Of a stretch of 61,939 bases of DNA, positions 128 to 61,212 are shown in pieces (within the stretch, counting starts at the first letter, position 1; each line of letters starts with the position of its first letter). This DNA is from a virus (lineage: Duplodnaviria; Caudoviricetes). Location: IMG/VR virus record IMGVR_UViG_3300021475_000013, positions 1 through 61,939 of that record; one strand, written 5' to 3'. A program made the translations under genes and the position numbers. Under the pieces are notes generated by a model. It searched no databases. It saw only the letters and a list, made by a program, of their open reading frames with translations, and was not told the origin of the DNA.

Positions 128-734
128 AAAGAGGTGCTTGATACGCTCGCGTTGACCCTACCTGCGCCAAGGCAAGATTTGTATACGCAGTCCCGTATCC
201 GAACGTGTAATTCGCCCAAAGAACGCCTAGAGGCGTCTTATCGACGATTTCTGCAGGCATAGGTGATCCTGCGCCCGCACCAGAGTTAGAAAGCAATGGA
301 ACGATACGAAAATAGCCCTTATCTGGGAAATCCTGCAAATAACCCGTAGGTCCAGTATCAATCTGGATAAACCACTTGAGCACCTGAATATAAAGCGTAT
401 TTATTTGCTGATATGGACGATTTTGCATGACCATGGTAACAAGCTGAGGATTGAGCGGTCGAATCTGTATGTTCGACTTCGTCTCATCGATAGTCTGCGT
501 ATCAAACCACCTACGACAAATACGATTGACCTCAGATGATTTTGTTTTGAGTAGATTCTGTAGACGGCCCGAAGTGACAATCGGTGATGATGTCGTGAGT
601 CCAAGACCCACAGCGTATTCTGTCGTCAAAAACTCCGCGACGGACATATACGGATTGTCGACAGCAATAACCATCGGCTTTCCTGATGGTGTATTGTTTG
701 GCGTTGAAAAATAACCTGATGTTTGCGGTTGCAT
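1..734 (-). CDS. Head-tail connector/adaptor protein, 5' part; gene spans the origin and continues 61812->61578 (~322 aa total)
   Basis: Manual translation from ATG at 734 (MQPQTSGYF...NPYMSVAEF...SSEVNRICRRWF...YTFGYG) is open across the junction into the 61578 ORF (IPFDIKQATMLL...LLEPY). The pattern and position downstream of the capsid gene fit a gp6/gp15-like adaptor. Confidence 0.75.
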   Translation of the reverse strand, partial: MQPQTSGYFSTPNNTPSGKPMVIAVDNPYMSVAEFLTTEYAVGLGLTTSSPIVTSGRLQNLLKTKSSEVNRICRRWFDTQTIDETKSNIQIRPLNPQLVTMVMQNRPYQQINTLYIQVLKWFIQIDTGPTGYLQDFPDKGYFRIVPLLSNSGAGAGSPMPAEIVDKTPLGVLWANYTFGYGTAYTNLALAQVGSTRAYQAPLYYQLWAPSQPLTVYNNGVAVASSNYTIDYPNGIVTFTNMYLS

Positions 735-940
735 TACGATATTCTACTCTTAGCGCGCTCGGCTAATATCATCATTTCGACGATTTCTTTTTCCGTCCAA
801 TCTTCCTCACTCAATGCTTTTCTTATATCAGATTCCGATACGCCTTTTATATAGGCCATAATCGGATTCTCGGCAATTTCTTTAGATCGACCTCTATCGT
901 CCTTATTCATGCTCTTGTAAAGTTGTGTGAATCTGGTCAT
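734..940 (-). CDS. Hypothetical protein (head module)
   Basis: 68-aa ORF; its stop overlaps the next start (TAATG). Confidence 0.6.
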   Translation of the reverse strand: MTRFTQLYKSMNKDDRGRSKEIAENPIMAYIKGVSESDIRKALSEEDWTEKEIVEMMILAERAKSRIS

Positions 941-941
941 T

Positions 942-1421
942 TTATTTGTATTTTATTACCTTTGTGTGTTTTCTTGAATTACAGCTTCGACACAACGGCT
1001 GTATGTTCTCAATATTATCTGAACCACCCTTTGAAAGAGGTATGATATGGTCTTGGTTCAATTTTATCTCTGGCTCTTTTTTACCGCATCCTAGGCAGGT
1101 CCAGTTGTATTGTGCTTTCAAATTTTCCCATTCTGAAACAGTGTGAGATCCTCCATTTCCTATTCTTCTAGCCCTTCTTCTTAAGGCATAGAATATAGCT
1201 TTTTCCATATTCCTCTCTCTCCACCTCTTTGCAGATGTTTTACTTATACCCCCTTTCCAATTTGCCGCATTTTCTCCCTTTCTTTTACTAGCATTTTTGC
1301 TCAAAATCATACGTGTTTTCTTAGAGTGAGTTCTTGCAAAGCCTGCAAGACTTAACTTTCTTCTTGTCTCTTCACTCGCTACTTTTCCAACACGTATTTT
1401 ATGACCTTTTGTAAACGGCAT
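942..1421 (-). CDS. HNH homing endonuclease with NUMOD3-like N-terminus
   Basis: SEETRRKLS / [11 protein letters not shown]-terminus; CLGC...[31 protein letters not shown] motif. Confidence 0.92.
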
Positions 1422-1445
1422 ATTTGGATTCTTCAGCTCTTACCT

Positions 1446-1454
1446 ATTATACCA
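1446..1454 (-). promoter_or_regulatory. Extended -10 promoter for the HNH gene
   Basis: Minus strand reads TGGTATAAT ~25 nt upstream of the ATG at 1421. Confidence 0.6.
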
Positions 1455-1474
1455 ACAACCACCTCAAAATGACT

Positions 1475-2671
1475 TTATAGGTGCTTTTCTAGTGCATCGT
1501 GGAACATTTTTATCTTGTGTTCCCATAGCCAATTCTCCCTGACGTACTTAGCGGCCGCTTTGCCTTTCTTCTTAACTTCATCTCTGTTGTTATATGCATA
1601 CTTCATCAACTCAACCAAGTGATCCAATGATGGTTCAGCCCATTTGCCACACTCTTCTTTGTAAACAGTATCCGTAAATTCTTTGGCGGGTGCCAATACG
1701 AAATCTAACGGCCAACCGACTTCCGTATTCATATACTCGCAAGGACCAGACCAATTCGTGACGATCGCAGGAATGCCTGTAGCCATTGCTTCAAGCGGTG
1801 TGAGCCCGAAGCCCTCGCCCCTAGTGGGAAAAACGAAACAATCCACTTTCTTAAAGAAATTCTCAACTAGATCGTGATGATCCACAGGTGTCATATCGAC
1901 TTTTACCCGTTTATCCTTCGTAGCATAGAAAAAACCATAGGTGCTTGTCTTGCAAATAAGTTGCACGTCCTTCTCAGTCGGAAATGCTTTGAGGAACGCA
2001 TCTACAAGAATATCCGTACCCTTGCGCTTTGAAAGCGATCCCATAGTTCCGAACGTGAACGGACGATACGGCGTACGCTCAACTTCATAAAACTTCTCAG
2101 GATCAACACCCCAATGAATGAGCTCAATCGGCACAGTAACGCCTGACTCCTTAAACGCATCGATGTTCTGCTTACAAGGGACTAGAAGTGCGTCGCACGC
2201 ATTGATTCTTGATATCCATGACGCAGGAATAATCGTTGTCTCAAACGGCACAATCGCTATTTTCTTTTGGAACGGCAATTTTGCCCATTGATGCTTCGGT
2301 TGTTCATGAATGATTGCCGCTCCCCTCGGATTAATCGCGCGCGTAGACGCCTCAATGACTTCCCTATTATTCAAATTCAAAATCTTCCCGAGCTGTGAAA
2401 CATTGTATTCAGAAGAGCTGTTTTTTATGAGATTCAGGCTCACATTTCCCCATCCGCTCACATTATCGATATCGCTTACAAAAAGGAACTCCCTTCCAGT
2501 CCTAAAAGAATCTGGATCGTACGGTTGTGTCTCCGTTGAAAAATCGACAGGACATATCTTTCCAAGACGAAGCGCGGTAGATAAATCTAAATCTACATCT
2601 ACATTCGTATCGTAGAACTTTCCATTATAGAAAATACCTCTTGATTTAGCGTCGTTGATTCGTGCTTTCAT
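1475..2671 (-). CDS. Glycosyltransferase family 4 (GT-B)
   Basis: SGWG N-terminal loop, RKGTDIL, and FVFPTRGEGFGLTPLEAMATGIP (EX7E motif). Confidence 0.92.
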   Translation of the reverse strand: MKARINDAKSRGIFYNGKFYDTNVDVDLDLSTALRLGKICPVDFSTETQPYDPDSFRTGREFLFVSDIDNVSGWGNVSLNLIKNSSSEYNVSQLGKILNLNNREVIEASTRAINPRGAAIIHEQPKHQWAKLPFQKKIAIVPFETTIIPASWISRINACDALLVPCKQNIDAFKESGVTVPIELIHWGVDPEKFYEVERTPYRPFTFGTMGSLSKRKGTDILVDAFLKAFPTEKDVQLICKTSTYGFFYATKDKRVKVDMTPVDHHDLVENFFKKVDCFVFPTRGEGFGLTPLEAMATGIPAIVTNWSGPCEYMNTEVGWPLDFVLAPAKEFTDTVYKEECGKWAEPSLDHLVELMKYAYNNRDEVKKKGKAAAKYVRENWLWEHKIKMFHDALEKHL

Positions 2672-2735
2672 AGATGTGGGTAACTTTGTTATGTACTCAT
2701 TTACATAAAACTAATAAAATGATAGGGTGGTATTT

Positions 2736-3338
2736 ATGCATAAGTGTAAACTATGTAAAATATTATTTCAACCATGCAGGGGTGCACGGGGTGTGTATTG
2801 CTCGTCTAAATGCTGGGCTAGATCACCTGAAAAGGCACGTATAAATAGACATGCCTTGAAAGGCAAAAAACTGTCTAAAGCTCATAAATTGAAGATGAGG
2901 ATGGCTAAGTTAGGTAAAAAACAACCTAGAGAATTAGTCGAAAAAAGAATTGCATCTATACGATCAAATGGTAATTGGAAATGGAAGAAAAGCACTATAC
3001 TCAAACGAGCGAATGCCAATAGAGGTCAGAAAAGAACTGGAAAAGCATACCAAAATATCCTTGATGGAATTGCTCGATCTCATGGATATAAAAATTACAA
3101 ATCTATACCCCATGAAGATAATCCTGACTGGCGGGGTCCTGAATGGAAGAAAATAAGGGAAGAAATAAAGAAAAGGGATGGATACAAATGCCAAAAGTGT
3201 CCAAAAACAAAACGCTTGCAGGTCCATCACATAGTTCCATGGAGAAAAACTCATGATAATTCTCCGTCGAATCTCATTACTCTTTGCATTAATTGTCATC
3301 AAAGGGAAAAAGGTATAAACAAAAAACCCACTCGTTAG
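2736..3338 (+). CDS. HNH homing endonuclease (inverted relative to the operon)
   Basis: N-terminal CxxC/CxxxC; RDGYKCQKC...LQVHHIVPW...NLITLCINCH. ATG at 2736 is preferred over GTG at 2727. Confidence 0.9.
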   Translation: MHKCKLCKILFQPCRGARGVYCSSKCWARSPEKARINRHALKGKKLSKAHKLKMRMAKLGKKQPRELVEKRIASIRSNGNWKWKKSTILKRANANRGQKRTGKAYQNILDGIARSHGYKNYKSIPHEDNPDWRGPEWKKIREEIKKRDGYKCQKCPKTKRLQVHHIVPWRKTHDNSPSNLITLCINCHQREKGINKKPTR

Positions 3339-3350
3339 AGTGAGTCTTTT
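3320..3350. terminator. Bidirectional intrinsic terminator between the HNH and major capsid genes
   Basis: AAAAAA-ACCCACTC-GTTA-GAGTGAGT-CTTTT hairpin flanked by A and T tracts. Confidence 0.75.
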
Positions 3351-3376
3351 GATTACCGAACGAATCTGGCCTGTTT

Positions 3377-4420
3377 TTAAGCAGGATCCGAGATGTTGGT
3401 CACCTGACCAACCCACGGCTCGGCCTTGAGGGCGAGGACCAAATATTCGTTGAGGTAAAAACGCACAGTATCTGCAATCTTCGCAAGCTCTGTGCGACCC
3501 AGCGGTACAAGGTCAACCATCTGGACTCCCTGCTCATCATGTCTGAGGAAGTAAGCCGAGCTTACAGTGTTTCCCGTAGCACCCGACGAACCTGCTTGGT
3601 TGATCGGATACGGAAGAGCTGGGTTAACGAAGAAGTCACCTACAATCGGAATCGGTCCAAGTGCCGTCTGATAAGAGACCGCATTGAGACCAGCCGTGAG
3701 ATTAACTTCACGAGAATCTAGCTGAACGAGATAGCGGGCGGCAGGCGCGATTATTTGATTAACCACGGTCTGAATCCCGAACGAACAGTAGATGCCATCG
3801 ATTTTGGAGCCGCCCTGAAGACGAATCAATTTAATGATTTTGTCGAACACAGGGATCGTAGTACCCGTCGCGGTAAGTGCCGCGGCCGCGTTGTTGTACA
3901 CGTTAGTGACGATCGATACAGCCAATCCGTTGAAAGAAAGGGTGTTAACCGATGCGTCACCGTTGAAGTCAGCCCACTCTTCCGCCTGAACAATTCTGCG
4001 GAGTGCGGCTTCTGCAACTTCTGCCTCAATATCGATGTAAGAACGACCAGAAGCAATCATAGGACCAGTGATGACAGCCGTAGTACCGAGGTACACGTAG
4101 GCCGCCGTCTTTTGGGTGTACGCAGGATCAGTCGACGGTGGAAGGTTGCCGTCCGCATAGAACAGCGAAACCAAACCAGAGGGACCATCTGCCGTAGTGT
4201 CCAAACGAGTGCGCTGGTTCCAAAGGTGCGCGAGACCCTCTCCCTTCATGCGTGAAACGCGATCACGGAAAGGCGTCTGGCGATCCGACAGAACAACAAT
4301 GGCGCTCTCAAGGTCTTGACGAGCCAAGAGGGAGTTCGGAGTAGGACCAGCGAACGAAATGTTCACCGATTTCTCGAACTTACTCAAAGCATTTTCGAGT
4401 CTTGAAAAATCTGAACTCAT
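3377..4420 (-). CDS. Major capsid protein
   Basis: 347 aa directly downstream of the protease-scaffold gene; EEWADFNGD...SFNGL, GPIPIVGDFF and C-terminal LALKAE patterns typical of HK97-fold capsids; followed by a terminator. Confidence 0.88.
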   Translation of the reverse strand: MSSDFSRLENALSKFEKSVNISFAGPTPNSLLARQDLESAIVVLSDRQTPFRDRVSRMKGEGLAHLWNQRTRLDTTADGPSGLVSLFYADGNLPPSTDPAYTQKTAAYVYLGTTAVITGPMIASGRSYIDIEAEVAEAALRRIVQAEEWADFNGDASVNTLSFNGLAVSIVTNVYNNAAAALTATGTTIPVFDKIIKLIRLQGGSKIDGIYCSFGIQTVVNQIIAPAARYLVQLDSREVNLTAGLNAVSYQTALGPIPIVGDFFVNPALPYPINQAGSSGATGNTVSSAYFLRHDEQGVQMVDLVPLGRTELAKIADTVRFYLNEYLVLALKAEPWVGQVTNISDPA

Positions 4421-4533: not shown

Positions 4534-6147
4534 CTAAGACTGCTCTTGTGGAGCAATCGAAGAGAATTTGGATTTGAAGACCGACTTAAAGTCCTGAGGA
4601 CCTTTGTCGCTCTTTTGGACTTCCTCCACGGCTTTGGCGGTCAGTGCGTATTTCTTTCCATCTTTCGTGACCATGTAAGGAACTCCCATTGAAACCGATT
4701 TCTTGAAGCCTGCTTCTTTAAGCATACCCATCAAGTCCGACTGCAATCCAGAATCGGTACGGATTGCATCCGCGATCATCTGAGCAAGCCCAGGTACTCG
4801 CGTACCCGACTTCTCAAACTTTTCCGCCATCGTATCAGCAAACATTGCGACGGAAACCGCAAAGCGGTCGATGCTGGACACCTTTGACTCAGCAGATTTC
4901 TCTACCTTGTCTGTCTTTTCAGACTTAGTGACCTTGACTGACTTCATACCCTTAGTAAGTCCGTCGATATGAGCGATCGCATCAGAGATGCTTTTCATCT
5001 CATAATCCTTTTCGTCTTTCTTGTCTTCATCGTCTGCCGCTTTCTCAGTATCCTTTTCCTCGTCTTTTTTATCATCGTCAGCGGCTTTTTCCGTGTCTTC
5101 CTCTTTGTCATCTTTCTTGTCTTCTGCCTTAGCGGTCTGCTGTTCCTCTTCCTTCGGCTTGTCCTTGCTAGGATTCTCCGTCTCACGAGCATTATTTGCC
5201 GCAGTCTTCTTACCCTCAGCATCCTTAGTACCATTACCGCCATCATCTTCCTGACCCTCGCGAGCCTTGGCAGTCTGCTGTGTATCATCTTCCGCCTTAT
5301 CCTTATTAGGATTTACGGTCTCCTTCGGAGAATCACCCATAGCCTTGATAAGATTACCGATACCAGAAAATCCCTTTGCAACAAGATCAGCAAGTTTATC
5401 AAACTGACCTTTCGTAACGAAAGATTTCTCAGTCTCTTTCATTTCATCCTTCTTCTCTTCTTTGTTGTCTTCTTTTGACATATCTTTATTAACTAAATTA
5501 CTAATTTTTTCCCATTTATTGTCTGGAACAGACTTCGCAAATTGCACCAAATAATCAAGCTTGGGATTTTCAAACAAAAACTTGTTATACATCGGCGAGT
5601 CATAATATGGACTCACGTCTGCATCCTTTGCCTTGATACTCTTCGCAAAGAGCCACGCATCATAATTGGCGGGCTTCCTTGTGACCGACACCTCATCAAG
5701 GACGACATCATAAAATGTTTTTACCATCTTACCCGTCGACTCGACCATTTCACGGACTGCGTTTCTCACGCGACCGCCGACCGAAAGTCCGTACTTTGAT
5801 CCTTTCTTGAGGTTCTCGTGCAACATTGGACCAGCTGGATGTGAAGCATCAATCGCGGCGCGGATCCATAGCTGGTTACGTGAATCCACCCACGCTTTAT
5901 ATACATTACCAATTATAGCGGCTTTCTCTGCATTATGTTCATACCTGAGAGGTACGCCTTGATCATTGACCATACTTGCCATAGATTTAAGCGCATCCAT
6001 AGCCATTCTTTCGTTGTCATGATCCACATTAACAGTGCTCGCAATACCCTCAACGATCAGCTTTCCGTCTTCCTCCGTAGCCATAGCTTTTTCTATGTAG
6101 AACTCGAATGGAAACTCACCTTTTGCTTCTAAAGTGATCTTACTCAT
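4534..6147 (-). CDS. Prohead (maturation) protease fused to an acidic scaffold domain
   Basis: VEGIAST..VDHDNE, YEH (His), GLSVGG (Ser) and EVSVTRKPAN match the HK97-type protease; long D/E/K-rich C-terminal region. Confidence 0.9.
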   Translation of the reverse strand: MSKITLEAKGEFPFEFYIEKAMATEEDGKLIVEGIASTVNVDHDNERMAMDALKSMASMVNDQGVPLRYEHNAEKAAIIGNVYKAWVDSRNQLWIRAAIDASHPAGPMLHENLKKGSKYGLSVGGRVRNAVREMVESTGKMVKTFYDVVLDEVSVTRKPANYDAWLFAKSIKAKDADVSPYYDSPMYNKFLFENPKLDYLVQFAKSVPDNKWEKISNLVNKDMSKEDNKEEKKDEMKETEKSFVTKGQFDKLADLVAKGFSGIGNLIKAMGDSPKETVNPNKDKAEDDTQQTAKAREGQEDDGGNGTKDAEGKKTAANNARETENPSKDKPKEEEQQTAKAEDKKDDKEEDTEKAADDDKKDEEKDTEKAADDEDKKDEKDYEMKSISDAIAHIDGLTKGMKSVKVTKSEKTDKVEKSAESKVSSIDRFAVSVAMFADTMAEKFEKSGTRVPGLAQMIADAIRTDSGLQSDLMGMLKEAGFKKSVSMGVPYMVTKDGKKYALTAKAVEEVQKSDKGPQDFKSVFKSKFSSIAPQEQS

Positions 6148-6149
6148 GA

Positions 6150-6389
6150 CTATGTTTGGTTACCGACACCATTTGTTGCAACCCAATACTGAATACCCTG
6201 ATTATCCTTGTACGAAAGTACAAGTGATGCCGCAAACTTAGAAAAGACCGCGCCGCTTGTCGGCGTTATCGTGTAGTATTGATTCTGATTTGTTGAATCA
6301 AACGCCGTAACAACACTCTGAACGGTGTAATTCTTACCGCCATGTGCTACCACATCTCCTGCTACTATCGTACTTAAAAATGCACTCAT
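6150..6389 (-). CDS. Small hypothetical protein, possibly head-associated
   Basis: Beta-rich, T/N/Y-rich 79 aa from ATG 6389, located in the head module. Confidence 0.55.
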   Translation of the reverse strand: MSAFLSTIVAGDVVAHGGKNYTVQSVVTAFDSTNQNQYYTITPTSGAVFSKFAASLVLSYKDNQGIQYWVATNGVGNQT

Positions 6390-6399
6390 ATTTTTATAA

Positions 6400-7383
6400 T
6401 TAATTTTTAATTTTACCCAACTCACCCAACGCTTTGCACATTGAATGATGATTTTGATCCTCCAAAATGTCGTATGCGCCCTTTGATACCTTCCTACCGA
6501 CCGCCTCGCCGACCTGCTTGACGTAATTCTTCCAATCCTCTTTTACATCTCCGCCGTCAGAGTATCCATTCTTATCCCAGATGCGTGAATCTGTACGCAT
6601 GAGTGATTCGGCTTCATTTCTGACAGCCGCGCCATCCTTATCGTCTACAGATTTCTGTACGATTTCTCCCTTCCAAAAATCTTTGAATGATTTCCCCATA
6701 CGCTCCTTAATTGTATCTTTCAGACCCTTCTTTTGTTCACTGATGATATCAGACTTTATTTCAGCCTTTTCTTTCTTAGTATCAGCGTCCTTTGCATCGT
6801 CTTTAAGGTCTTTGAGATTACCAACGACCGACTTGGTCTTATTTTGATCCAGAACTCTCTGTACAGTCGCCTCATCGTAGTCTTCATCCGTTTCTAATCC
6901 CAGTCGCTCTGCTATATCTCGAGCATTCATACCTTGACGATGTAAATCCATTATCTTCTTGTCTTCTGCTGGCCCATACGTAGCGTTCTTTCCTACCCTT
7001 GAATACTCACCCGCTTTCCTATTTACTTCATCAGAAAGCTCATAATCCTCGGGCGGGCACTTCTCTCCTTCCAAATCCTGATCGGCTAAAAGAGAATTAG
7101 GCACGGGTCCTGCGTCGGCGGTAGATACAGCTTTTGCCTTCCATGTATCTTTGAAAGACTTCTTGCTGTCTGCTTTATGATTTTCTTGATTATGTAATGC
7201 CATGTTGGTAACTTTAGCTCCACACTTCGGACACACTGGTAGTTTTGAAACTTCCTCATCTGTTGCAGGTGTGTATGTCTTCTCCGCTTCCTCATCCACA
7301 TACGAACTAATAGGTACACCATTCTTGTCATATGTGACGTGAACGGTATTCTTTTCCAACCATGTATCTTTGAATTTACTCAT
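6400..7383 (-). CDS. Putative internal head (poly)protein with capsid N-arm mimic, Zn-finger and HTH modules
   Basis: AGPVPNSLLADQDLE copy of the capsid N-terminus; three (K/S)(S/K)FKDxW repeats; CPKC..H..H; IMDLHRQGMNARDIAERLG HTH. ATG at 7383 follows TATAAT. Confidence 0.65.
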   Translation of the reverse strand: MSKFKDTWLEKNTVHVTYDKNGVPISSYVDEEAEKTYTPATDEEVSKLPVCPKCGAKVTNMALHNQENHKADSKKSFKDTWKAKAVSTADAGPVPNSLLADQDLEGEKCPPEDYELSDEVNRKAGEYSRVGKNATYGPAEDKKIMDLHRQGMNARDIAERLGLETDEDYDEATVQRVLDQNKTKSVVGNLKDLKDDAKDADTKKEKAEIKSDIISEQKKGLKDTIKERMGKSFKDFWKGEIVQKSVDDKDGAAVRNEAESLMRTDSRIWDKNGYSDGGDVKEDWKNYVKQVGEAVGRKVSKGAYDILEDQNHHSMCKALGELGKIKN

Positions 7384-7416
7384 ACTTGAATTATATCCAC
7401 TTATATACCGATTTGT

Positions 7417-7449
7417 TAAAACTAGCCCCACGCGCGTGCGAGGGGCTAG
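7417..7449 (-). terminator. Intrinsic terminator
   Basis: Minus strand CTAGCCCC-loop-GGGGCTAG-TTTT. Confidence 0.75.
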
Positions 7450-7476
7450 GAACGAGGGTATTAACCTCGCGTAGAT

Positions 7477-7674
7477 TTAGACCACCTCCTCTCCCGTCGG
7501 TACAAGCACCGACGTAATAAGAAACTGGTCTGGATGATCCTGCAGTGCTTGGCGTTTTTGCGACGCTTCACACTCCATTGGAGTCGGACACGCTTCGGTG
7601 TCCGTCGAGAAAAGAACGAATGGCTCTTCATGACGAAGGAACTTTTTGCAAGTTCCGCAGATTATCTTACACAT
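7477..7674 (-). CDS. Small Cys-rich hypothetical protein
   Basis: 65 aa with CGTC...C..C; overlaps the upstream small ORF and precedes a terminator. Confidence 0.5.
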   Translation of the reverse strand: MCKIICGTCKKFLRHEEPFVLFSTDTEACPTPMECEASQKRQALQDHPDQFLITSVLVPTGEEVV

Positions 7675-7805
7675 TGTAGTGGTTGGAATATGGACGTTTT
7701 AGTTACAGAAACAACGCGGGCGATTATCGCTCCGTTGGAATATTCGATGACAATTTCAAGCAAGAAAGTCTGTCCATCATGGACGACGAAAACTTTGTGT
7801 TTCAA
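7662..7805 (-). CDS. Small hypothetical protein (47 aa, not in ORF track)
   Basis: TTG start preceded by AGGAGGTG and GGGTATAAT; MKHKVFVVHDGQTFLLEIVIEYSNGAIIARVVSVTKTSIFQPLQCVR. Confidence 0.6.
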   Translation of the reverse strand: MKHKVFVVHDGQTFLLEIVIEYSNGAIIARVVSVTKTSIFQPLQCVR

Positions 7806-7837
7806 GGTACACCTCCTAATATAATTATACCCCTTTC

Positions 7838-8956
7838 CTATACCAATCGTGCACGATAATCCCCATCCTCATCTAACTCAAGTGCTACACCACCTTTTGA
7901 CGGTGGCTTGTACCCCGCTCTATACGCATACGTATTCGCCCACCTCAAGAATGAGGGGCATATGACGATCCACTGTGTCATGTATTTCAACCGACAATTC
8001 ATCGAGTCCTCCACCAAGCAGGTCTCCGCTTCCGCTATCGCGTCATGGACATGTCCTTGAACGAAGAACTGAATGTCCGATGTGAAGTTTTTCGGCTTTG
8101 ATGCCATGTTAAGCTTACCGCCCTTAGTCTGAGAGTTTCCGAATCCGTGCTGTATATAAAATGACCACTTGTGATTATTGGCCAATACTGACATGAGAAC
8201 AGGTCCCGCAAAGTATGGAATGGAAAGACGATCACAAAGTATCTTCATAAAATCTATGCCTGTCTTTTTGTACGTACGCCATTCGTGATTACCGCTTGTT
8301 GCAACTAAAATCTTGTGAGCGATAGGCACCAACATCTCTACCATCTCGTCGAGCTGTGATTGCGGATTAACGTTCTGATCGTACGTCATACCACGTCCAT
8401 CGTCGATTGCATTCTCAACTAAATCACCGCCGAGAATGACGTACACGTTATCAGTGTTCTTTATCCACTTCAGATACGATAGAAACTTATCCTTTCGATG
8501 TGCCACATTGCCATAGTGAACATCAAATAGTGGTGCTATATTCATCTTCTTTTCGAAGTCGTTAAGTTGCACCACGATATATGGCTGTGTCGTACCGTCG
8601 GTATCTTTGCCGATATGGTAACTCCAGTCTCTCTTTTTTATATCAAAATCTTTCCTCGGTTCAGGGAGAAGAATGTATACGTTCTCTCCTTTTTCATTTA
8701 TCTGCTTGAACAGATTTAATCCTTCGTACTTCTTTTTAAGGGGTGCAAGACTTTTCAAACGATACAAAACCTCTTTCTCTGTGCGCGCCTTAGAAAGAAA
8801 TATCGGTACGCTATACAATCCATTCTTACTCAATCCAAGTCTTCTCCTTCGGTGTTCTACTTGCTTGAGACTCAATCCAAGCTCACGAGCGATTTCAGGG
8901 TCAGACATTACTTTGTAATGATCTTTTATGAAATCGTTAATCTCGTCGTGTGTCAT
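7838..8956 (-). CDS. Calcineurin-like metallophosphoesterase with N-terminal HTH
   Basis: DVHYG, GGDLVE, GNHE, QHG and GHVH motifs; N-terminal MSDPEIARELGLSLKQVEHRRRRLGL. Confidence 0.88.
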   Translation of the reverse strand: MTHDEINDFIKDHYKVMSDPEIARELGLSLKQVEHRRRRLGLSKNGLYSVPIFLSKARTEKEVLYRLKSLAPLKKKYEGLNLFKQINEKGENVYILLPEPRKDFDIKKRDWSYHIGKDTDGTTQPYIVVQLNDFEKKMNIAPLFDVHYGNVAHRKDKFLSYLKWIKNTDNVYVILGGDLVENAIDDGRGMTYDQNVNPQSQLDEMVEMLVPIAHKILVATSGNHEWRTYKKTGIDFMKILCDRLSIPYFAGPVLMSVLANNHKWSFYIQHGFGNSQTKGGKLNMASKPKNFTSDIQFFVQGHVHDAIAEAETCLVEDSMNCRLKYMTQWIVICPSFLRWANTYAYRAGYKPPSKGGVALELDEDGDYRARLV

Positions 8957-14271: not shown

Positions 14272-15849
14272 CTATCTCTTGTTTTTGTTCTTACTTGATA
14301 TGGCCGCAAGAATTCTTGATGCCATAGACTTCTTTTTCGGTGTATCGCTTTGATCTCGATACGGCTTTTCTTTACCGACCTCGTCAGGTCTCTCACCTTC
14401 TTCTTTCGTGTCTGCTTCTTTTTTCTCTGGCTGATCAGTTTTTTCTTCATCGCCTTTCGCTTCACCATCACCCTCCTCATCCTGTTGCGTTGAAATCATA
14501 GGCACATATCCGCTTGCCGTGAGCACCATCGGTTGATTGAACGTATCATCCTCATACGGCTCTTTACCTGCCGCTCGACGGGCTTCATTAACAGTCCATA
14601 CACCTGCTTGAAGATTCTTAGTCGCTATATCTGCTCCATCCTTAGGATCGACAATGTCTGTACCTACCCAGTCGAACTCCAAATCTTCGTAACCAAAGTC
14701 CTTCCAAATGATCTCCTGATTGAAGACCTCCTTGATCAAATGCAAAATAGAGCTATATCCTTTCTGATCCGAAATATCTTTCTGAGTCTCAGAGACGTTC
14801 TTTGAACCGACATCATCTGTCAGTCCTATGTCCTGTCCGCCAAGACCATATGCGGCAGCCAATAGTCTCGCGAGAAACTTATTGTACTCCATCATCTGCA
14901 TATCATTGTTCGTCGCGTCTTTGAGATTCAAAACCTTTGCATCCGTACCTCCAGCCATGATCGCTGGGCGGTGGAAGTTTCCCATAAGCTCCGACGTAAG
15001 GTATTGGCGATACGCTTCCACGTCTCGCTGGTTGACCTGACCCATGATTTGAAGAATGATCGGCGGGAAAGCCCCGTCCTCGAAATATGTGCCGTTGTAG
15101 TTATCAATGTTCAATAGATTGGCTACGACTGAAATAACACCCTCAAGCGGGGAAAGTCCGTAACCAATACCCTCCATCGATCCTTGCGGATGCATGTGGA
15201 AATTTAGGAAGTCGCGCTTTGGCCACGCCGCGATAATCTCACCCGACTCGGGTCCGCCGTATTGGGAATTATTTAGAATCTGAACATACGAAACAGGCAG
15301 GTCATCCATACCATCTTTCGTATCAAGTGGGATTTGAACATCTTGATTGCCATGCTCGTCAAACACAGGACGAATGGTTGATGAATCTACGAAATGAAGC
15401 TCCGCAAGCTTTCCGTCTGGAAAGCGTGTCTTTTCTACAGATACCGAGTCAAGTACTAGTAAGTCCTCGACCATCTTATCGAGAAGCGTACGCATGGTCT
15501 CATCGTTCTTATTGGGATGCCTGAATAGGTCTGTGACCTCCTTGATACGCGGATCCTTTTTGTCCGACACAGTGTCAGTCGAATCAATCGGCTTCACAAC
15601 CCACTTAGTCTTGGTAACCTTTTCCTTGAGCGTGTTTATACAAATGCGGGCGATGTGAACCGACTGCGCCGCGCGACGAAGCACGTCAAACGAAATGCGT
15701 CCAGGCTTCGTGATGCCCTTTTCAATGAAAGATACGTTCCTCTGTCTGTCGCTTTCAAATACTAATCCACGTTGCGGAGTGATCATGCGATCCGCCTTGG
15801 TAAATGATTCGACAGTCACCGACGGAGCTTTGATAGTTTCTTCTGACAT
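14272..15849 (-). CDS. Portal protein
   Basis: LHFVDSSTIR, GYGLSPLE, YFEDGAFP and WTVNEARRAAGKEP are HK97-family portal motifs; acidic tail. Confidence 0.93.
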   Translation of the reverse strand: MSEETIKAPSVTVESFTKADRMITPQRGLVFESDRQRNVSFIEKGITKPGRISFDVLRRAAQSVHIARICINTLKEKVTKTKWVVKPIDSTDTVSDKKDPRIKEVTDLFRHPNKNDETMRTLLDKMVEDLLVLDSVSVEKTRFPDGKLAELHFVDSSTIRPVFDEHGNQDVQIPLDTKDGMDDLPVSYVQILNNSQYGGPESGEIIAAWPKRDFLNFHMHPQGSMEGIGYGLSPLEGVISVVANLLNIDNYNGTYFEDGAFPPIILQIMGQVNQRDVEAYRQYLTSELMGNFHRPAIMAGGTDAKVLNLKDATNNDMQMMEYNKFLARLLAAAYGLGGQDIGLTDDVGSKNVSETQKDISDQKGYSSILHLIKEVFNQEIIWKDFGYEDLEFDWVGTDIVDPKDGADIATKNLQAGVWTVNEARRAAGKEPYEDDTFNQPMVLTASGYVPMISTQQDEEGDGEAKGDEEKTDQPEKKEADTKEEGERPDEVGKEKPYRDQSDTPKKKSMASRILAAISSKNKNKR

Positions 15850-20638: not shown

Positions 20639-21460
20639 TTATTTGTTAAACGCACTCTTATAATTTTCTTTCCCTGGCATCCCTCCCCACTTCTTTACAT
20701 AATAAAATTGGTTCGCCCGAAACTGCTCATGACTCGTCGCAGGCTTATCCAACGCCTCCGTCTGTGTCTTCGATGCATAATGATAGAACAAAGATGTAGG
20801 CAATACAATCGCTTTCATTCCCGCAAGGTTAATACGATAGTGATAATCATTGTCCTCGTAATAAGCTGGCTTGAACTCCTCATCCATGGGTCCTATCTTA
20901 TCCCAGCACAATCGATTGACCATGAACGCAGAGAAGCACGGATGCTCTGCCTCTGGTACCGACTCCTTTTCTTTCAAGTCCTTTGTAAGGATATCAGTTG
21001 GTGCCGCACACTCTCCGCGTACATCCATTGATGTGACCATAGCGAGAACATTAGTCTCTGAATAACAAGCTGTCGCTGTCGGTTCCTCTCCCTGAAGGTC
21101 TACACTTTTATCCAGTACAAGATTATTTTTAGCCTTCTCAAATCTCTCAACCAACCTATCTATCGCCTCGGGATGAAGTAGTACGTCGTTGTTGATCACA
21201 AAGGCATAGTCATATCCGCGCTCAAACGCGTCCTTGATACCGAAGTTGGCCGACTTCGAGAATGCCCATCGTTCCTCATTCCTCTGATGCGCGAATGTCG
21301 ACGACACCAACTTGCCTGCCTCAACACTCGTATTGTCCGTCGAAGCATTGTCGATAAGAAGAACCCGATACTCATGCTTCGTCTTGATCGACTCTATGGC
21401 CGCCTTAGTGTATTTGTCCCACAAATTAATTACAGGCACAATTATTTGGACTTTGCTCAT
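20639..21460 (-). CDS. Glycosyltransferase family 2
   Basis: IIVPVIN, IDNASTD, VINNDV and YYEDNDY motifs. Confidence 0.9.
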   Translation of the reverse strand: MSKVQIIVPVINLWDKYTKAAIESIKTKHEYRVLLIDNASTDNTSVEAGKLVSSTFAHQRNEERWAFSKSANFGIKDAFERGYDYAFVINNDVLLHPEAIDRLVERFEKAKNNLVLDKSVDLQGEEPTATACYSETNVLAMVTSMDVRGECAAPTDILTKDLKEKESVPEAEHPCFSAFMVNRLCWDKIGPMDEEFKPAYYEDNDYHYRINLAGMKAIVLPTSLFYHYASKTQTEALDKPATSHEQFRANQFYYVKKWGGMPGKENYKSAFNK

Positions 21461-21993
21461 TGGATTGCTTTATTAAAGTCCTCTAATTTCATGCTTTTTA
21501 TCACACTACCTTTTAACCGAATAACTCTATAACCAAAATCAGTAAATAATTTATTCTTTTTCTCATCCTTTTCCTGAACCTCTGGCTTGGAGTGCCAATA
21601 ATCTCCGTCGCATTCAATAATAGTTTTTGATTGTGGCAAATAAAAATCTACCAATGCTATTCCCTTTATAGGTACTTGCTTCAAAAATGCTATCTTATTT
21701 TCAATCAACATTTTTTCGACAAGGATCTCAATGTCAGTATTGCTAAACTTTGCTTGATGCGTGGCCATATACTCTATCCGAGCCTTACTCATTTTTTCTT
21801 TTGTATCTTTATTACGTTTTTTTCCTTTTAGGATCAATCCTCTCTTTTCTCTCTCTTCAATTGGTTGAACTCTACCAAGATTTACCTTATTACCTTTCTT
21901 GAATTTATATCCAACAACCAAACCTTTGTGTGATTCGGACATCTTCTTTCTTGTTTCAAGAGACATTTTTTTTCCTAGCCAGTATCTAGTCAT
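21457..21993 (-). CDS. NUMOD3 + DUF559/Vsr-like homing endonuclease
   Basis: SLETRKKMSESHKG; VDFYLP..IIECDGDYWH. Confidence 0.88.
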   Translation of the reverse strand: MTRYWLGKKMSLETRKKMSESHKGLVVGYKFKKGNKVNLGRVQPIEEREKRGLILKGKKRNKDTKEKMSKARIEYMATHQAKFSNTDIEILVEKMLIENKIAFLKQVPIKGIALVDFYLPQSKTIIECDGDYWHSKPEVQEKDEKKNKLFTDFGYRVIRLKGSVIKSMKLEDFNKAIQ

Positions 21994-27655: not shown

Positions 27656-29458
27656 TTATCTATGCCTCATCATCTGCATGAAAACTTCCTTCTCGTAGTT
27701 CTGCTCGGCGATGATAGCCTGATCCGCTTTCTTATTCTCCTCCTTCAGAATGACTGGGTCTTTGATATTCACTGGTTCTCTAAGCAAAGGACCATTGTCG
27801 ATGGACGGAACGACAAGTCTACCACTATCAAGATCTCGCATCTCCGAAAATGCGAACCACATGGCCATAAGCGAGTCTCCTGTATGTCCATCAGGAAATG
27901 CGCGCATCTCGTTCATCAACTGAGAAATCAGGCGTGTTGTTGCTGGATCATGTATATCATAAGGAAGAATCAATTTCTTATCTTCGGCAAAAATAGCCAG
28001 TGAGTTCACTCCAGCGTAAGGATCTTTCTTTTCTTTGCCAGTTTTATATCCTCGAACAGGAACACCCATATCATCTAAGTCCCTAACCATGGATTCTTGG
28101 AACCCTACGCTTTCCACTCTGATACCATCAGGTTGAAGTTTGTCATAATGTTCTTTCACTGTATTACGCACGGTCGCTGGTGAGAACTTGCCGCGCCAAA
28201 TGTTTCTTACGAAAATATCTCCACGTTTGATATTAGGATCAGTAGAGTACTTAACCCTATCTAGCGTAAGCAATACGGTATCATCAGATTTCTTTTCTTC
28301 CGAAATCGCCAAGTCCAATCCTTCCGTAGTTAATTCCATTTCAAATCCGTCTCGTTTGCCGAGTTGCAAACTATACTTAGAACCTTTATTAATCGCTTCC
28401 TGAAGCCATGATTCTTCGAACTTCTGATCGGGGCGAAGCGATGGGTCGCACTGATACATGCGCGCAAAGGCATATGGGTTATTCTTCCGCTCCAAATAAA
28501 ACCATCCATATCCGTGTCCTGACCCTTCGAACCTATCAGGCCAGAGCAACTGAATGCCTTCGTCCATTGCTTCCTTATTCTTTTCGTAAAACGCTTGCGC
28601 CATCGTCTGACGATCCTTGAATTCTATATCCTCATTGTAAAGAATCTTAGCCCATTCATCCCATAGATTTATGTTGATTGGATCCTGAATGATCGCTTTG
28701 ACTTTGTTTCGATAGTCATAAAACGGGTTCTTCAAGAGTCGAGACACCAAGTCGTCCATATGCCATGTGTTACCGAGATATAAGAAACGGCTGCCGCTCG
28801 CCAAAAGCACTGGTCGAATCGTCGTATCTACCCACTCCACGACCTTCTTGCGCTGATCCTCTGTCTCGGAGTTCTCCTGATCGACTATGTCGTCGCAGAT
28901 GATGACCTTCGCGCGCTTAGAAAGAATCGAACCGAACAAACCGACGGCCGTGACAGTCGGCTCTTTCACATTAAGATCGGTACGCCTGATGGAAATCGAA
29001 CGTCCTGACCAATTCTTCTTGGCTTTTGAATAACCTTTCATCTGCGGTATGACACCACGATCTGCTGGATCTTTGATCGTATCCTTATCGACATAACACG
29101 CAAAACGCTGATACCTATCGTTCGCCTCAATGTTACTGATGACCTGAGCCAAGAAGTCTTTTGCCATGCTTTCCGTATTACACACCAAAAGAATCGTTAC
29201 GTTGTGATCCATAGCCATGAGCCACATGACATACGAAACGCTGATGTGCTGGGACTTTCCATGATTACGCGGATACGAGATGACTATGCGCTTGTACGCT
29301 GAGTCTGAAATGATATTGTCGAGTTCGTTTTGAAATGGCGCGTTCTTGAACCCGCGAATGTACTCCACGAAAACCTTAAAGTCAGTCTTTGCTCGCTCAA
29401 AGACTTTTTGCTCGAACAGATTACTTTTCTGGGTTTCCATCTTGTTTTTCTTCTGCAT
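27656..29458 (-). CDS. Terminase large subunit
   Basis: YPRNHGKS Walker A, IICDD Walker B, LGNTWHMDD, YQCDP, GLDLA nuclease Asp and FPDGHTGD. Confidence 0.95.
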   Translation of the reverse strand: MQKKNKMETQKSNLFEQKVFERAKTDFKVFVEYIRGFKNAPFQNELDNIISDSAYKRIVISYPRNHGKSQHISVSYVMWLMAMDHNVTILLVCNTESMAKDFLAQVISNIEANDRYQRFACYVDKDTIKDPADRGVIPQMKGYSKAKKNWSGRSISIRRTDLNVKEPTVTAVGLFGSILSKRAKVIICDDIVDQENSETEDQRKKVVEWVDTTIRPVLLASGSRFLYLGNTWHMDDLVSRLLKNPFYDYRNKVKAIIQDPININLWDEWAKILYNEDIEFKDRQTMAQAFYEKNKEAMDEGIQLLWPDRFEGSGHGYGWFYLERKNNPYAFARMYQCDPSLRPDQKFEESWLQEAINKGSKYSLQLGKRDGFEMELTTEGLDLAISEEKKSDDTVLLTLDRVKYSTDPNIKRGDIFVRNIWRGKFSPATVRNTVKEHYDKLQPDGIRVESVGFQESMVRDLDDMGVPVRGYKTGKEKKDPYAGVNSLAIFAEDKKLILPYDIHDPATTRLISQLMNEMRAFPDGHTGDSLMAMWFAFSEMRDLDSGRLVVPSIDNGPLLREPVNIKDPVILKEENKKADQAIIAEQNYEKEVFMQMMRHR

Positions 29459-60104: not shown

Positions 60105-60533
60105 CTAACGAGGCACCAATGCACAGTAACAATTCGGATGTAGTGGAATGATCGGTACGCCACCTTTCTGCAATTCTTTCTGTTTGAAAGTTTTACCCTT
60201 AAACGCTTTCACGCAATGCTCACACGCATTCGGTGAAAGTAATACTCGATACTCTGGTATTTCTAGAAACTCTCCCGCATCTATGACTTCCTGAGTCTCC
60301 ATGCCCTTAATCTCAGTATAGTACACTCTCTCTGCTTTGTATCTCTCGGAAAGTTTCGCATTGTGATCCTGAATATACTTGATCATACGGTTCGCACTAT
60401 ATCCTTTCTTCTGCAATCGACTGATTGTCTTTTGAATATCCAAAAGCTCTGCCATAGACAATTTATCTGATGACTTTATCAAGTATTCTTCTTCCGTAGC
60501 TTGTGCCAATTTCCAGTATTCTTTGAATTTCAT
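60105..60533 (-). CDS. Minimal MuF/SPP1 gp7-like head morphogenesis protein
   Basis: AERVYYTE, CEHC and IPLHPNCYC motifs. Confidence 0.75.
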   Translation of the reverse strand: MKFKEYWKLAQATEEEYLIKSSDKLSMAELLDIQKTISRLQKKGYSANRMIKYIQDHNAKLSERYKAERVYYTEIKGMETQEVIDAGEFLEIPEYRVLLSPNACEHCVKAFKGKTFKQKELQKGGVPIIPLHPNCYCALVPR

Positions 60534-60537
60534 TGCA

Positions 60538-61212
60538 TTAAGAAAAAGGGAAATAAATATTGTCTTTCAACACATCGTTCGCCCAGAAACGAATTACTCG
60601 GTATCCAAACCCCGAAAGGATCTCGTCTCTTGCTCTATCCTTTTCTCGACCAAAAGGAAAATTGTGCCAATATTCACCATCAACTTCGATTATTGCGTTG
60701 AACTTTGGTATGTAGAAATCAACCATGTAACCTTTGATATTTTTTTGAAACTCAAAGACGATTCCCCAGTCATTAAGAATAGACTTCATTTTCAACTCTG
60801 GTTTTGTATTAAAGACACGTTTCATTTTTCCTGATTGCATAGTCTCTATGATTTTCTTTGCCGCATCTGGTCTTTTTTTACCGAACCAAAAGTGTTTTTC
60901 ACCCCTTTGTGAACCCTTTTCTTTACGAGTCTTTGCTGAATTAGACGTGTATTTTTTTACTCTAGGATCATCTTTATGAAGTCCCTTATTCCAAGCTTTC
61001 TGACCCTTATGTGATTGCCTCATCTTTTCTATTGATTCTTTGGAATGTTTACTACCTCTCCATTTACTTGGTTCCCCTTTCTTAAACCCCCATGTCGCAC
61101 CTCTCAATTTAGACATTCTCTTTTCTCTGATTATCGGGTCTTTCCAAGAATCGGAAACTTTTTTCCTTTGTTCTAAACTTTTATTTTTTTCTATAACATC
61201 AGGTCTTGACAT
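60538..61212 (-). CDS. NUMOD3 + DUF559/Vsr-like homing endonuclease
   Basis: HSKESIEKMRQSHKG, AWNKG; TKPE..VDFYIP..IEVDGEYWH..GYRVIRFW. Confidence 0.9.
   Translation of the reverse strand: MSRPDVIEKNKSLEQRKKVSDSWKDPIIREKRMSKLRGATWGFKKGEPSKWRGSKHSKESIEKMRQSHKGQKAWNKGLHKDDPRVKKYTSNSAKTRKEKGSQRGEKHFWFGKKRPDAAKKIIETMQSGKMKRVFNTKPELKMKSILNDWGIVFEFQKNIKGYMVDFYIPKFNAIIEVDGEYWHNFPFGREKDRARDEILSGFGYRVIRFWANDVLKDNIYFPFS

Follow-up and report, generated by a model that had tools for sequence, protein, structure and literature searches.

The IMG/VR record IMGVR_UViG_3300021475_000013 (Duplodnaviria; Caudoviricetes) is complete, spans 61,939 bases and has direct terminal repeats; the whole of this stretch of DNA, referred to below as the window, was analysed. 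Nearly all of its genes are carried on the minus strand. Among them is a gene for a mosaic protein of 327 amino acids (aa), referred to below as the target, which holds a 22-residue segment resembling the N-terminus of the major capsid protein (MCP) encoded by the same genome. Along the direction of transcription, the region comprises an exonuclease-like gene, a hairpin followed by a promoter match, the target gene, a 79-aa gene, a 537-aa gene, the MCP gene, a glycosyltransferase gene and several HNH endonuclease genes (Table 1). We placed the start of the target at the ATG at position 7383; a longer frame beginning with GTG at 7431 opens within the hairpin, and the homologues of the target in relatives begin M-x-K-F-K. 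The portal gene (14272-15849) and the large terminase gene (27656-29458) of the window lie away from this region. In several relatives, a 115-aa gene follows the portal and is itself followed by the target homologue, a protease-scaffold gene, the MCP, a glycosyltransferase, a head-tail adaptor, a 119-aa gene, a MuF-like protein and Neck1, and this order, which places the target between the portal side and the protease-scaffold and MCP genes, bears out its description as a head-module protein in the initial annotation of this DNA.

The likeness between the two proteins is centred on a core of 15 residues. In the target, the core AGPVPNSLLADQDLE occupies residues 91-105 (7069-7113, minus strand) of the open reading frame (ORF) 6400-7383, and in the MCP the corresponding core AGPTPNSLLARQDLE occupies residues 24-38 (4307-4351, minus strand) of the ORF 3377-4420. 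The initial annotation had reported 13 identical residues out of 15 together with 15 differing codons out of 15, and both counts were reproduced. The same held for the spacing of a preceding lysine, since K84 of the target and K17 of the MCP each stand seven positions before the alanine of the core, with six residues between. The likeness was found to extend over 22 residues, K84-E105 of the target being aligned without a gap to K17-E38 of the MCP. A tblastn search of the MCP against its own genome found the target copy (E=4.7e-4), and a profile of MCP N-termini from other phages (20 distinct sequences, none from the window) matched the target at E=1.1e-10, compared with 0.44 for the runner-up among 696 six-frame ORFs. 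A profile built from both types of copy located only two sites in the window, one in the MCP and one in the target. By these search statistics, the target motif is real and specific, beyond chance. A third copy in the portal, in the scaffold or elsewhere in the window was also considered and was discarded, as nothing was matched at E<0.4.

The target copy had been described earlier as recoded. All of its codons do differ from those of the MCP copy, and none of the 13 identical residues of the window pair shares a codon, against 4.35 expected; deliberate recoding, however, did not stand, as the window pair is the tail of a saturated synonymous distribution. Over 19 genome pairs, several of which are near-duplicates and hence not independent, the same codon was used at 74 of 233 identical-residue positions, whereas 83.2 were expected from independent draws from the codon usage of each locus (four loci with no matched MCP copy were dropped). 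Active avoidance of shared codons between the copies was ruled out, as the pooled counts fit random codon choice. Since the synonymous sites are saturated between the two copies, the likeness appears to be held by selection on the peptide, which strengthens the earlier view that conservation acts at the protein level.

In order to describe the motif in relatives, we used the loci recovered from IMG/VR with the MCP as query (34 loci, 53-85% identity). In all 22 loci that show the gene upstream of the protease-scaffold, this gene carries the motif, and the remaining 12 of the 34 have less than ~1.75 kb upstream of the MCP, which is too short to show it. The presence of the motif in homologues, on which the earlier proposal depended, was therefore found in every case. 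The two motif genes are 2-3 kb apart in all loci, and six genomes that are 96-100% complete (the window and five relatives) hold exactly two motif matches each, namely the MCP and a target-type protein. An alignment of 19 sequences of the target family showed a mean column identity of 14%, and its only invariant columns were A91, G92, P95, L99, Q102, D103 and E105, all of them within the motif. As far as this alignment extends, the protein is hypervariable everywhere except in the motif, which alone holds invariant positions. Among the relatives, the MCP copy is nearly constant, and 16 MCPs are invariant at K17, V19, A24, G25, P26, P28, S30, L31, L32, A33, R34, Q35, L37 and E38.

A search of the motif profile against 1.84 billion representative proteins (50% clustering) gave 190 matches at E<=1e-3, and 151 of those sequences were examined (150 listed and P0004). 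Eight of them fell outside the regular expression for the motif, nine were MCPs or MCP fragments, and 134 were other proteins; two of the 134 (P0061 and P0084) are evidently MCP fragments too, which leaves ~132 non-MCP proteins. These range from 54 to 1187 aa in length, and the motif begins anywhere from the first residues up to residue 731. With the alanine of AGP numbered 0, the counts across the 134 were A0 131, G1 134, P4 134, S6 129, L8 134, Q11 134, D12 134, L13 133, E14 132 and G15 83. Upstream of the core, position -5 is hydrophobic, position -4 is glycine in 97 and position -3 is isoleucine, threonine or valine in 128, while the residue just before AGP is variable (G33, Y26, F21, D13, N12, A11). 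The arginine R34, invariant in the MCPs, is arginine in only 72 of the 134 mimics. The lysine before the motif, which is present in both window copies as originally observed, is not fixed in the family: it stands at -7 in 77 of 133 and at -6 in 49 of 133, and locus L003 has no lysine near the motif. The idea of a cut after this lysine is thereby weaker than the initial annotation had assumed. Each protein carried one motif in 140 of the 140 sequences listed, a few of which are MCP fragments.

Annotation of this family by similarity yielded little. A cluster look-up of ten family members returned no informative names, and a word-index protein search returned three relatives for the whole target and only the target itself for residues 72-116. 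Taken on its sequence relationships, the target is a member of a large family whose mosaic head-module proteins have no annotation. A recurrent cysteine-containing module, 'EKPGD..HS.KWD.CV....NAYAVCTA.LG', was also seen upstream of the motif in L005, L007, L009, L013, L020, L021, L022 and L028 and in P0002, P0004 and P0011; it had no Pfam match.

The target contains a second type of short element. The initial annotation had pointed out three repeats, FKDTW, FKDTW and FKDFW, at the module boundaries of the protein, and these were confirmed, beginning at F4, F77 and F233. We refer to them as FKxxW tags. The pattern F-[KRTNQ]-x-x-[WY] occurred 119 times in 600 ORFs of the loci and the window, 50 of these occurrences being within the first nine residues, and the 50 tag-led ORFs, among them the MuF-like minor head protein, formed 12 or more sequence clusters. 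The tag stands at the N-terminus of otherwise unrelated head-module proteins, as a capsid-targeting sequence (CTS) does. Three genes of the window are tag-led, all of them in the head/connector module: the target, a 68-aa gene and a MuF-like 142-aa gene, whose match to Pfam Phage_Mu_F (25.3 bits) is under the cut-off of 29.6. In the wide family, 71 of the 134 proteins carry two tags, typically one per end, with a range from 0 to 5, and 60 of 136 internal or C-terminal tags are preceded by K-S. Since the motif occurs once per protein and the tags from 0 to 5 times, the motif fits one address per molecule and not a repeated cleavage site.

The tags also mark where family members exchange segments. 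The 'NTVHVTYDKNGVP' piece of the target recurs in P0002 and P0004, and from the comparison of P0002-P0004 the modules are shuffled and delimited by tags. In locus L022 (3240-4289) there are two tag-led genes encoding 82 and 246 aa, whereas the near-identical locus L009 (3399-4289) has one 296-aa fusion, the junction of which keeps half a tag; this difference looks like gene fission or fusion at a tag.

We examined the modules of the target itself by pattern, family and structure searches. The CxxC..H..H pattern is present as described in the initial annotation (C51-x2-C54...H64...H69). The helix-turn-helix (HTH) claim held in part: AlphaFold2 (AF2) predicted two confident helices at residues 138-160, but the match to Pfam HTH_38 (E=0.0027, 17.8 bits) is under the cut-off of 27 and is found in only one of 19 family members. 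The helical hairpin at residues 171-229 is homologous to the 'KRQKA...KSFKxxW' segment of relatives. Searches of the target against Pfam and PHROG gave no family above threshold and no MuF match. The AF2 model of the target, made from the family alignment, had a mean predicted local distance difference test (pLDDT) score of 63.7 and consisted of helical beads joined by low-confidence linkers, a predicted picture that fits small modules on flexible linkers carrying linear motifs. A fold search of this model against 48,161 PDB representatives returned generic helical-hairpin matches only (residues 164-239, Z<=9.2, which is below a meaningful level for helical models), and the best score of the target in the ESM Atlas, 0.77, was uninformative.

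The 537-aa gene encodes a match to Pfam Peptidase_S78 at residues 23-165 (nt 5653-6081; E=2.8e-8, 34.5 bits against a cut-off of 21), which was found in 13 of 13 homologues, and it also matched phrog_80 (3e-13). Together with the K/E/D-rich stretch and the conserved C-terminal part, this match identifies the protein as a protease-scaffold fusion. Residues H43, H71 and S122 of the protease domain are invariant, which we take to be compatible with a Ser/His active site. Sequence and profile searches of the PDB with the protease-scaffold returned nothing relevant. In the C-terminal part, S484, K512, F520 and S529 are invariant among 13 homologues, and the element FKKSVSMGVPY resembles, by eye, FEKSVNISFAGP of the MCP. 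The end of the scaffold in relatives reads K.FKD.YK..FSS and is tag-like. A tag profile had its best match in the tail of 20 of 23 scaffolds, with E values of 0.03-13, none of which is significant alone.

The MCP falls just under the Pfam cut-offs for SU10_MCP (20.9 against 24.1) and Phage_capsid (20.8 against 24.2), and its PDB profile matches are the major capsid proteins 9row, 5lii and 9vel (4e-9 to 9e-9), from residue 85 on. The Pfam alignments start at residues 31-35, with positions 3-155 of the Phage_capsid model aligned to MCP residues 31-199. The AF2 model of the MCP (16-sequence alignment) was unusable, with a mean pLDDT of 34.8, and the equation of the motif with the N-terminal arm (N-arm) of the capsid protein therefore draws on the Pfam alignment and on analogy with HK97. 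On this footing, we infer that K17-E38 of the MCP corresponds to the end of the propeptide or scaffold part and the start of the N-arm in an HK97-type capsid. The closest solved relative of the MCP is deposited both as 463 aa and as 439 aa, an offset of 24 residues that suggests N-terminal trimming in that protein. As a separate observation, the MCP gene is split right after '...AGPTPTSLLAR' by an insert of ~1 kb in L024 (3081-4130), L023, L032 and L105 (8842-10504). This insert, which lies within the coding sequence of the motif itself, encodes a NUMOD3 plus DUF559/Vsr-like endonuclease and matches Rfam Intron_gpI below threshold (26.1 bits, E=3e-4); it probably represents a group I intron, for which the best-conserved DNA of the gene is the homing site.

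As shown in Table 1, the target is the first gene after the hairpin and promoter match. The promoter match agrees with the sigma-70 consensus at 11 of 12 positions and ends 7 nt before the ATG of the target, and with its -10 box 7 nt from that ATG the mRNA of the head operon may be leaderless or near-leaderless. The exonuclease-/metallophosphatase-like gene stands between lysis-like genes and the head operon, a position occupied by the portal in relatives. The small gene that follows the target gave no match in Pfam and PHROG searches. In locus L020, the 198-aa ORF at 3360-3956 joins the small conserved protein encoded ahead of the protease-scaffold to a stretch of 'SPSLSPS' repeats, which make up most of the ORF. 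The glycosyltransferase could glycosylate the capsid. At least four HNH/homing endonuclease genes are scattered over the window (942-1421; 2727-3338, plus strand; 21457-21993; 60538-61212), two of them flank the MCP-glycosyltransferase pair, and one (2727-3338) lies on the opposite strand. When the target and the MCP were compared by tblastn with 50,697 phage records, neither had a match, and no cultured relative was found. The sole GTDB contig match, L037 (7.4 kb, with an MCP 79% identical to that of the window), is filed under a 'Candidatus Micrarchaeota' metagenome-assembled genome and has the same coordinates as L005 of IMG/VR; the contig probably represents viral DNA that was binned with that genome and is not evidence of the host. 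A DnaD-like loader and the sigma-70-like promoter match point weakly to a bacterial host.

Table 1. Features of the target gene, its neighbours and related genes (positions are those of the window unless a locus is named)
Feature	Position	Strand	Basis or remark
68-aa protein, tag-variant start MTRFTQLYK (917-931)	734..940	-	tag pattern
GT4-family glycosyltransferase	1475-2671	-	directly after the MCP gene, also in most relatives with downstream DNA visible
MCP, 347 aa	3377..4420	-	phrog_752, 4.2e-18
Original segment in the MCP, K17-E38 (KSVNISF-AGPTPNSLLARQDLE)	4307..4372	-	sequence, MCP alignment
Protease-scaffold fusion, 537 aa	4534..6147	-	S78 domain, K/E/D-rich middle, conserved C-terminal part
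Scaffold C-terminal elements: FKKSVSMGVPY (4675-4707), VQKS (4609-4620), tail DFKSVFKSKFSS (4558-4593)	4558..4707	-	alignments
Small conserved 79-aa gene between target and protease-scaffold	6150..6389	-	present in relatives
Target gene, 327-aa mosaic head-module protein	6400..7383	-	ORF list and sequence
C-terminal module after tag 3	6403..6672	-	same module mid-protein in P0003
Tag 3, FKDFW, residues 233-237	6673..6687	-	KS before; after conserved helical hairpin
HTH-like pair (138-160) and helical hairpin (171-229)	6697..6972	-	AF2 blocks, pLDDT 80-97
22-residue capsid-N-terminus look-alike, K84-E105 (KAVSTAD-AGPVPNSLLADQDLE)	7069..7134	-	sequence, family alignment, MCP-only profile
Tag 2, FKDTW, residues 77-81	7141..7155	-	KS before; 14 residues ahead of motif core
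CxxC...H...H, possible small zinc ribbon	7177..7233	-	pattern match only; no family match
Tag 1, FKDTW, residues 4-8	7360..7374	-	N-terminus of target
Terminator-like hairpin (7443-7426), then sigma-70-like promoter match (7419-7390)	7390..7443	-	consensus scan only
Exonuclease-/metallophosphatase-like gene	7838-8956	-	phrog_7339, 6.8e-35; N-terminal HTH-like segment
MuF-like minor head protein, 142 aa, MKFKEYWK start (tag 60513-60527)	60105..60533	-	phrog_115, 2.5e-14
Sister-clade genes	L105:2190-5861 and 6432-8510; L106 (reverse complement) 134-3499 and 5303-7261		

Scanning IMG/VR with a degenerate DNA version of the motif yielded 61 stretches, and their translations revealed a second MCP clade (…QDLEAAIVKLTYRETPLRD) that retains the motif. 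One record of this sister clade has a portal, a MuF protein, a 406-aa protease-scaffold with no tag-like tail and then the MCP. In two others, a 652- or 692-aa protein with tag-like peptides at both ends (DFKKFFKE ... SFQDYFKTNFSS) stands at the place of the protease-scaffold, a label given to it by position and by N-terminal likeness to the 406-aa protein. The sister clade also has a 1121-1223-aa protein that ends in a MuF-like 'HPNCRC', which by eye looks like a portal-MuF fusion from its size and place. Since this clade keeps the motif in its MCP with no second copy, the MCP motif would be the older of the two and the shell would assemble without the mimic; on the records compared, the mimic is an addition of the ~62-kb clade.

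Taken together, we propose that the motif, in imitation of the capsid N-terminus, serves as a handle for loading an internal, mosaic head protein, a reading to which we give a probability of roughly 45%. The handle would be read by the same partner that holds the capsid N-terminus in the procapsid, and this partner may be the neighbouring S78 protease-scaffold, acting via its C-terminal tail and/or its protease domain. By analogy with phage 80alpha (PMC5644958), the inner capsid surface is no likelier a partner than the scaffold tail or the protease. With one handle on each molecule, the mosaic protein would be taken up entire by the growing procapsid in the way that a capsid subunit is. The FKxxW tags, which are scaffold-tail-like and stand at module boundaries, would be the likeliest sites at which the protease separates the modules, with the consensus K-S-F-K-x-x-W. 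Such cuts would release small proteins inside the head, namely one resembling a zinc ribbon, one that combines the HTH-like part with the hairpin, and the C-terminal module, and these may exit the head with the DNA. A more elaborate form of the proposal, which we regard as possible but doubtful, is mimicry on both sides of one interface: the capsid-side handle would be gripped by the scaffold tail while the FKxxW tags grip capsid N-termini, and the modules between them would be packaged, released by S78 cleavage at the tags and passed on together with the DNA. In that case, the handle would amount to a portable loading peptide that imitates the shell protein and not the scaffold.

Several observations weigh against the proposal of a loading handle. 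Its central steps, namely the binding partner, incorporation into the procapsid, cleavage and ejection, are inferred. The proteins of L005, L007, L009, L022 and L028 end soon after the motif, without a C-terminal tag. In the sister clade only the MCP matched the motif profile in five of five records, even with E allowed to reach 1 (each record is a fragment of 16-77% completeness, and in the three that were read the head module is visible), and the scaffold of L104 is without a tag-like tail though its MCP keeps the motif. The likeness of tag to scaffold tail is insignificant in every single scaffold, and the window's own scaffold tail is a degenerate tag, FKSVF, that is not the best match of the tag profile. 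The shift of the lysine between -7 and -6 leaves no defined cleavage site. The motif region of the target was modelled at low confidence (pLDDT ~50-72) with a short helix at residues 98-103, and 26 of 27 long family members had no Pfam match at 1e-4, so that the modules fall in no recognised family.

The proposal has its nearest counterparts in proteins loaded into other phage heads. In T4, unrelated proteins carry a CTS of 10 residues that directs them to the prohead core and is afterwards cut off by the prohead protease (PMC9026906). The likeness to the T4 CTS of IPI-III and Alt is that of a short peptide common to unrelated, fast-changing head-module proteins, and the FKxxW tag is similarly distributed. 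The T4 signal, as the same text describes it, is N-terminal only and acts through core proteins (PMC9026906), whereas the tag is also internal and C-terminal here. The window phage has, in addition, a second element that copies the capsid protein; the two systems are likened here by description. With SPP1 gp7 and Mu gpF, the target shares its position after the portal in relatives, and the window's MuF-like protein shares the N-terminal tag; the target differs from them in having no MuF match. SPP1 gp7 is loaded through the portal.

The initial annotation had placed the docking site on the shell itself. In the version weighed here, a cut upstream of the motif would free a capsid-like N-arm, which would dock on the inner capsid surface at a site that the N-arm of a neighbouring subunit normally fills, for example at sites left empty around the portal vertex, and so anchor cargo. 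We consider this unlikely, although it agrees with the extent of the copy, which covers the whole of K17-E38 including the lysine and the hydrophobic, glycine and isoleucine positions before AGP, and with the Pfam match that puts the motif at the start of the HK97-type fold. The background from which it started is correct, as the HK97 capsid precursor is cut after a lysine, at K103/S104, immediately before the N-arm (PMC10275583). The window phage shares with HK97 the protease family (Peptidase_S78), and by the Pfam alignment its motif would fall where the fold begins, as the HK97 N-arm does, but its scaffold is fused to the protease and not, as in HK97, to the capsid protein, and its MCP has ~23 residues before AGP. 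To our knowledge, HK97 has no second protein carrying its N-arm. Phage P1 provides a further precedent, since the N-terminus of DarA is cut by the prohead protease, and the internal proteins DarA and Hdf are fixed to the inner capsid surface near the MCP cleavage site and leave with the DNA (PMC12810830). Likened by description, DarA and Hdf are also head-internal proteins encoded among head genes; they differ in binding via helical domains, and the available part of that report mentions no linear motif shared with the P1 capsid protein (PMC12810830). Against docking on the shell stand the unfixed position of the lysine and the variable residue before AGP, and the behaviour of R34 in MCPs and mimics indicates that the constraints on the two copies are not identical. 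Moreover, the N-arm sites of a closed shell would be filled by the MCP's own arms, and the low-confidence MCP model does not fix the place of the motif in the fold.

That the motif is purely a recognition element of the S78 protease, we hold to be quite unlikely. The MCP propeptide and the target would both be cut beside it, and the target would enter the head via its tags or be processed unpackaged. The protease gene is near the target, the motif stands where the MCP would be trimmed, if the two deposited lengths of the solved relative do reflect trimming, and K-S recurs in the MCP (EKSV), in the scaffold (FKKSV, VQKS) and before the tags. However, with 22 residues and ~12 near-invariant positions, the motif goes far beyond the length of known prohead-protease sites, those of T4 gp21 and of the phiKZ type being three residues. 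It is also present in a single copy per protein whatever the number of modules, and among the 134 family members no residue is invariant at any plausible scissile bond.

Another reading, which we judge improbable and place behind the preceding ones, makes the target a regulator of assembly, in which the mimic would compete for scaffold tails and the tags for capsid subunits and which would time or nucleate assembly or set capsid size, in the manner of SaPI1 CpmB. CpmB occupies the same site as the 80alpha scaffold, with a tail similar to that of this scaffold. Trimming of the N-terminus in 80alpha is carried out by a host protease. The target holds both capsid-like and scaffold-tail-like elements and opens the head operon, downstream of a hairpin resembling a terminator and of a promoter-like site. 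There is also a precedent for competition at the interface of scaffold and N-arm, where the last 21 residues of the 80alpha scaffold gp46, a helix-and-hook, bind chiefly the capsid N-arm (PMC5644958). Molecular mimicry at this interface is the point of likeness, and the difference is that the mimic copies the scaffold side there and the capsid side of the presumed interface here. The extreme variability and module shuffling outside the short motifs look, however, like those of fast-evolving cargo, the lengths of 54 to 1187 aa do not suit a regulator, and the sister clade builds shells from an MCP of the same kind in its absence. Finally, the view that the likeness has no function and is left over from some past event, such as an old recombination in which the capsid gene's 5' end was copied into the upstream gene, deserves very little credence, for although the two genes are neighbours in all loci, the motif is the only conserved part of its family and ~12 of its positions are invariant across 134 highly diverged proteins while synonymous sites are saturated, a pattern that already contradicts it.

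In the open-access literature searched, we found no description of a copy of the capsid N-terminus on an accessory head protein. The system described here resembles capsid-targeting signals, but it imitates the shell protein. Among the contents of phage heads are proteins that accompany the DNA into the host, acting for example in anti-restriction or host take-over, and how these are chosen for packaging is known for few model phages. A simple sequence rule, a copy of the capsid N-terminus together with scaffold-tail-like tags, picks out a large unannotated family. If the motif were only a shared protease site, it would still define the substrate signature of one branch of S78 proteases. If the proposed handle is correct, it would point to a capsid surface that is read by the scaffold or the protease, it would supply a testable 22-residue loading peptide for HK97-type shells that may be useful for phage-capsid nanocontainers, and it would offer a way to predict packaged and ejected proteins in metagenomic phages.

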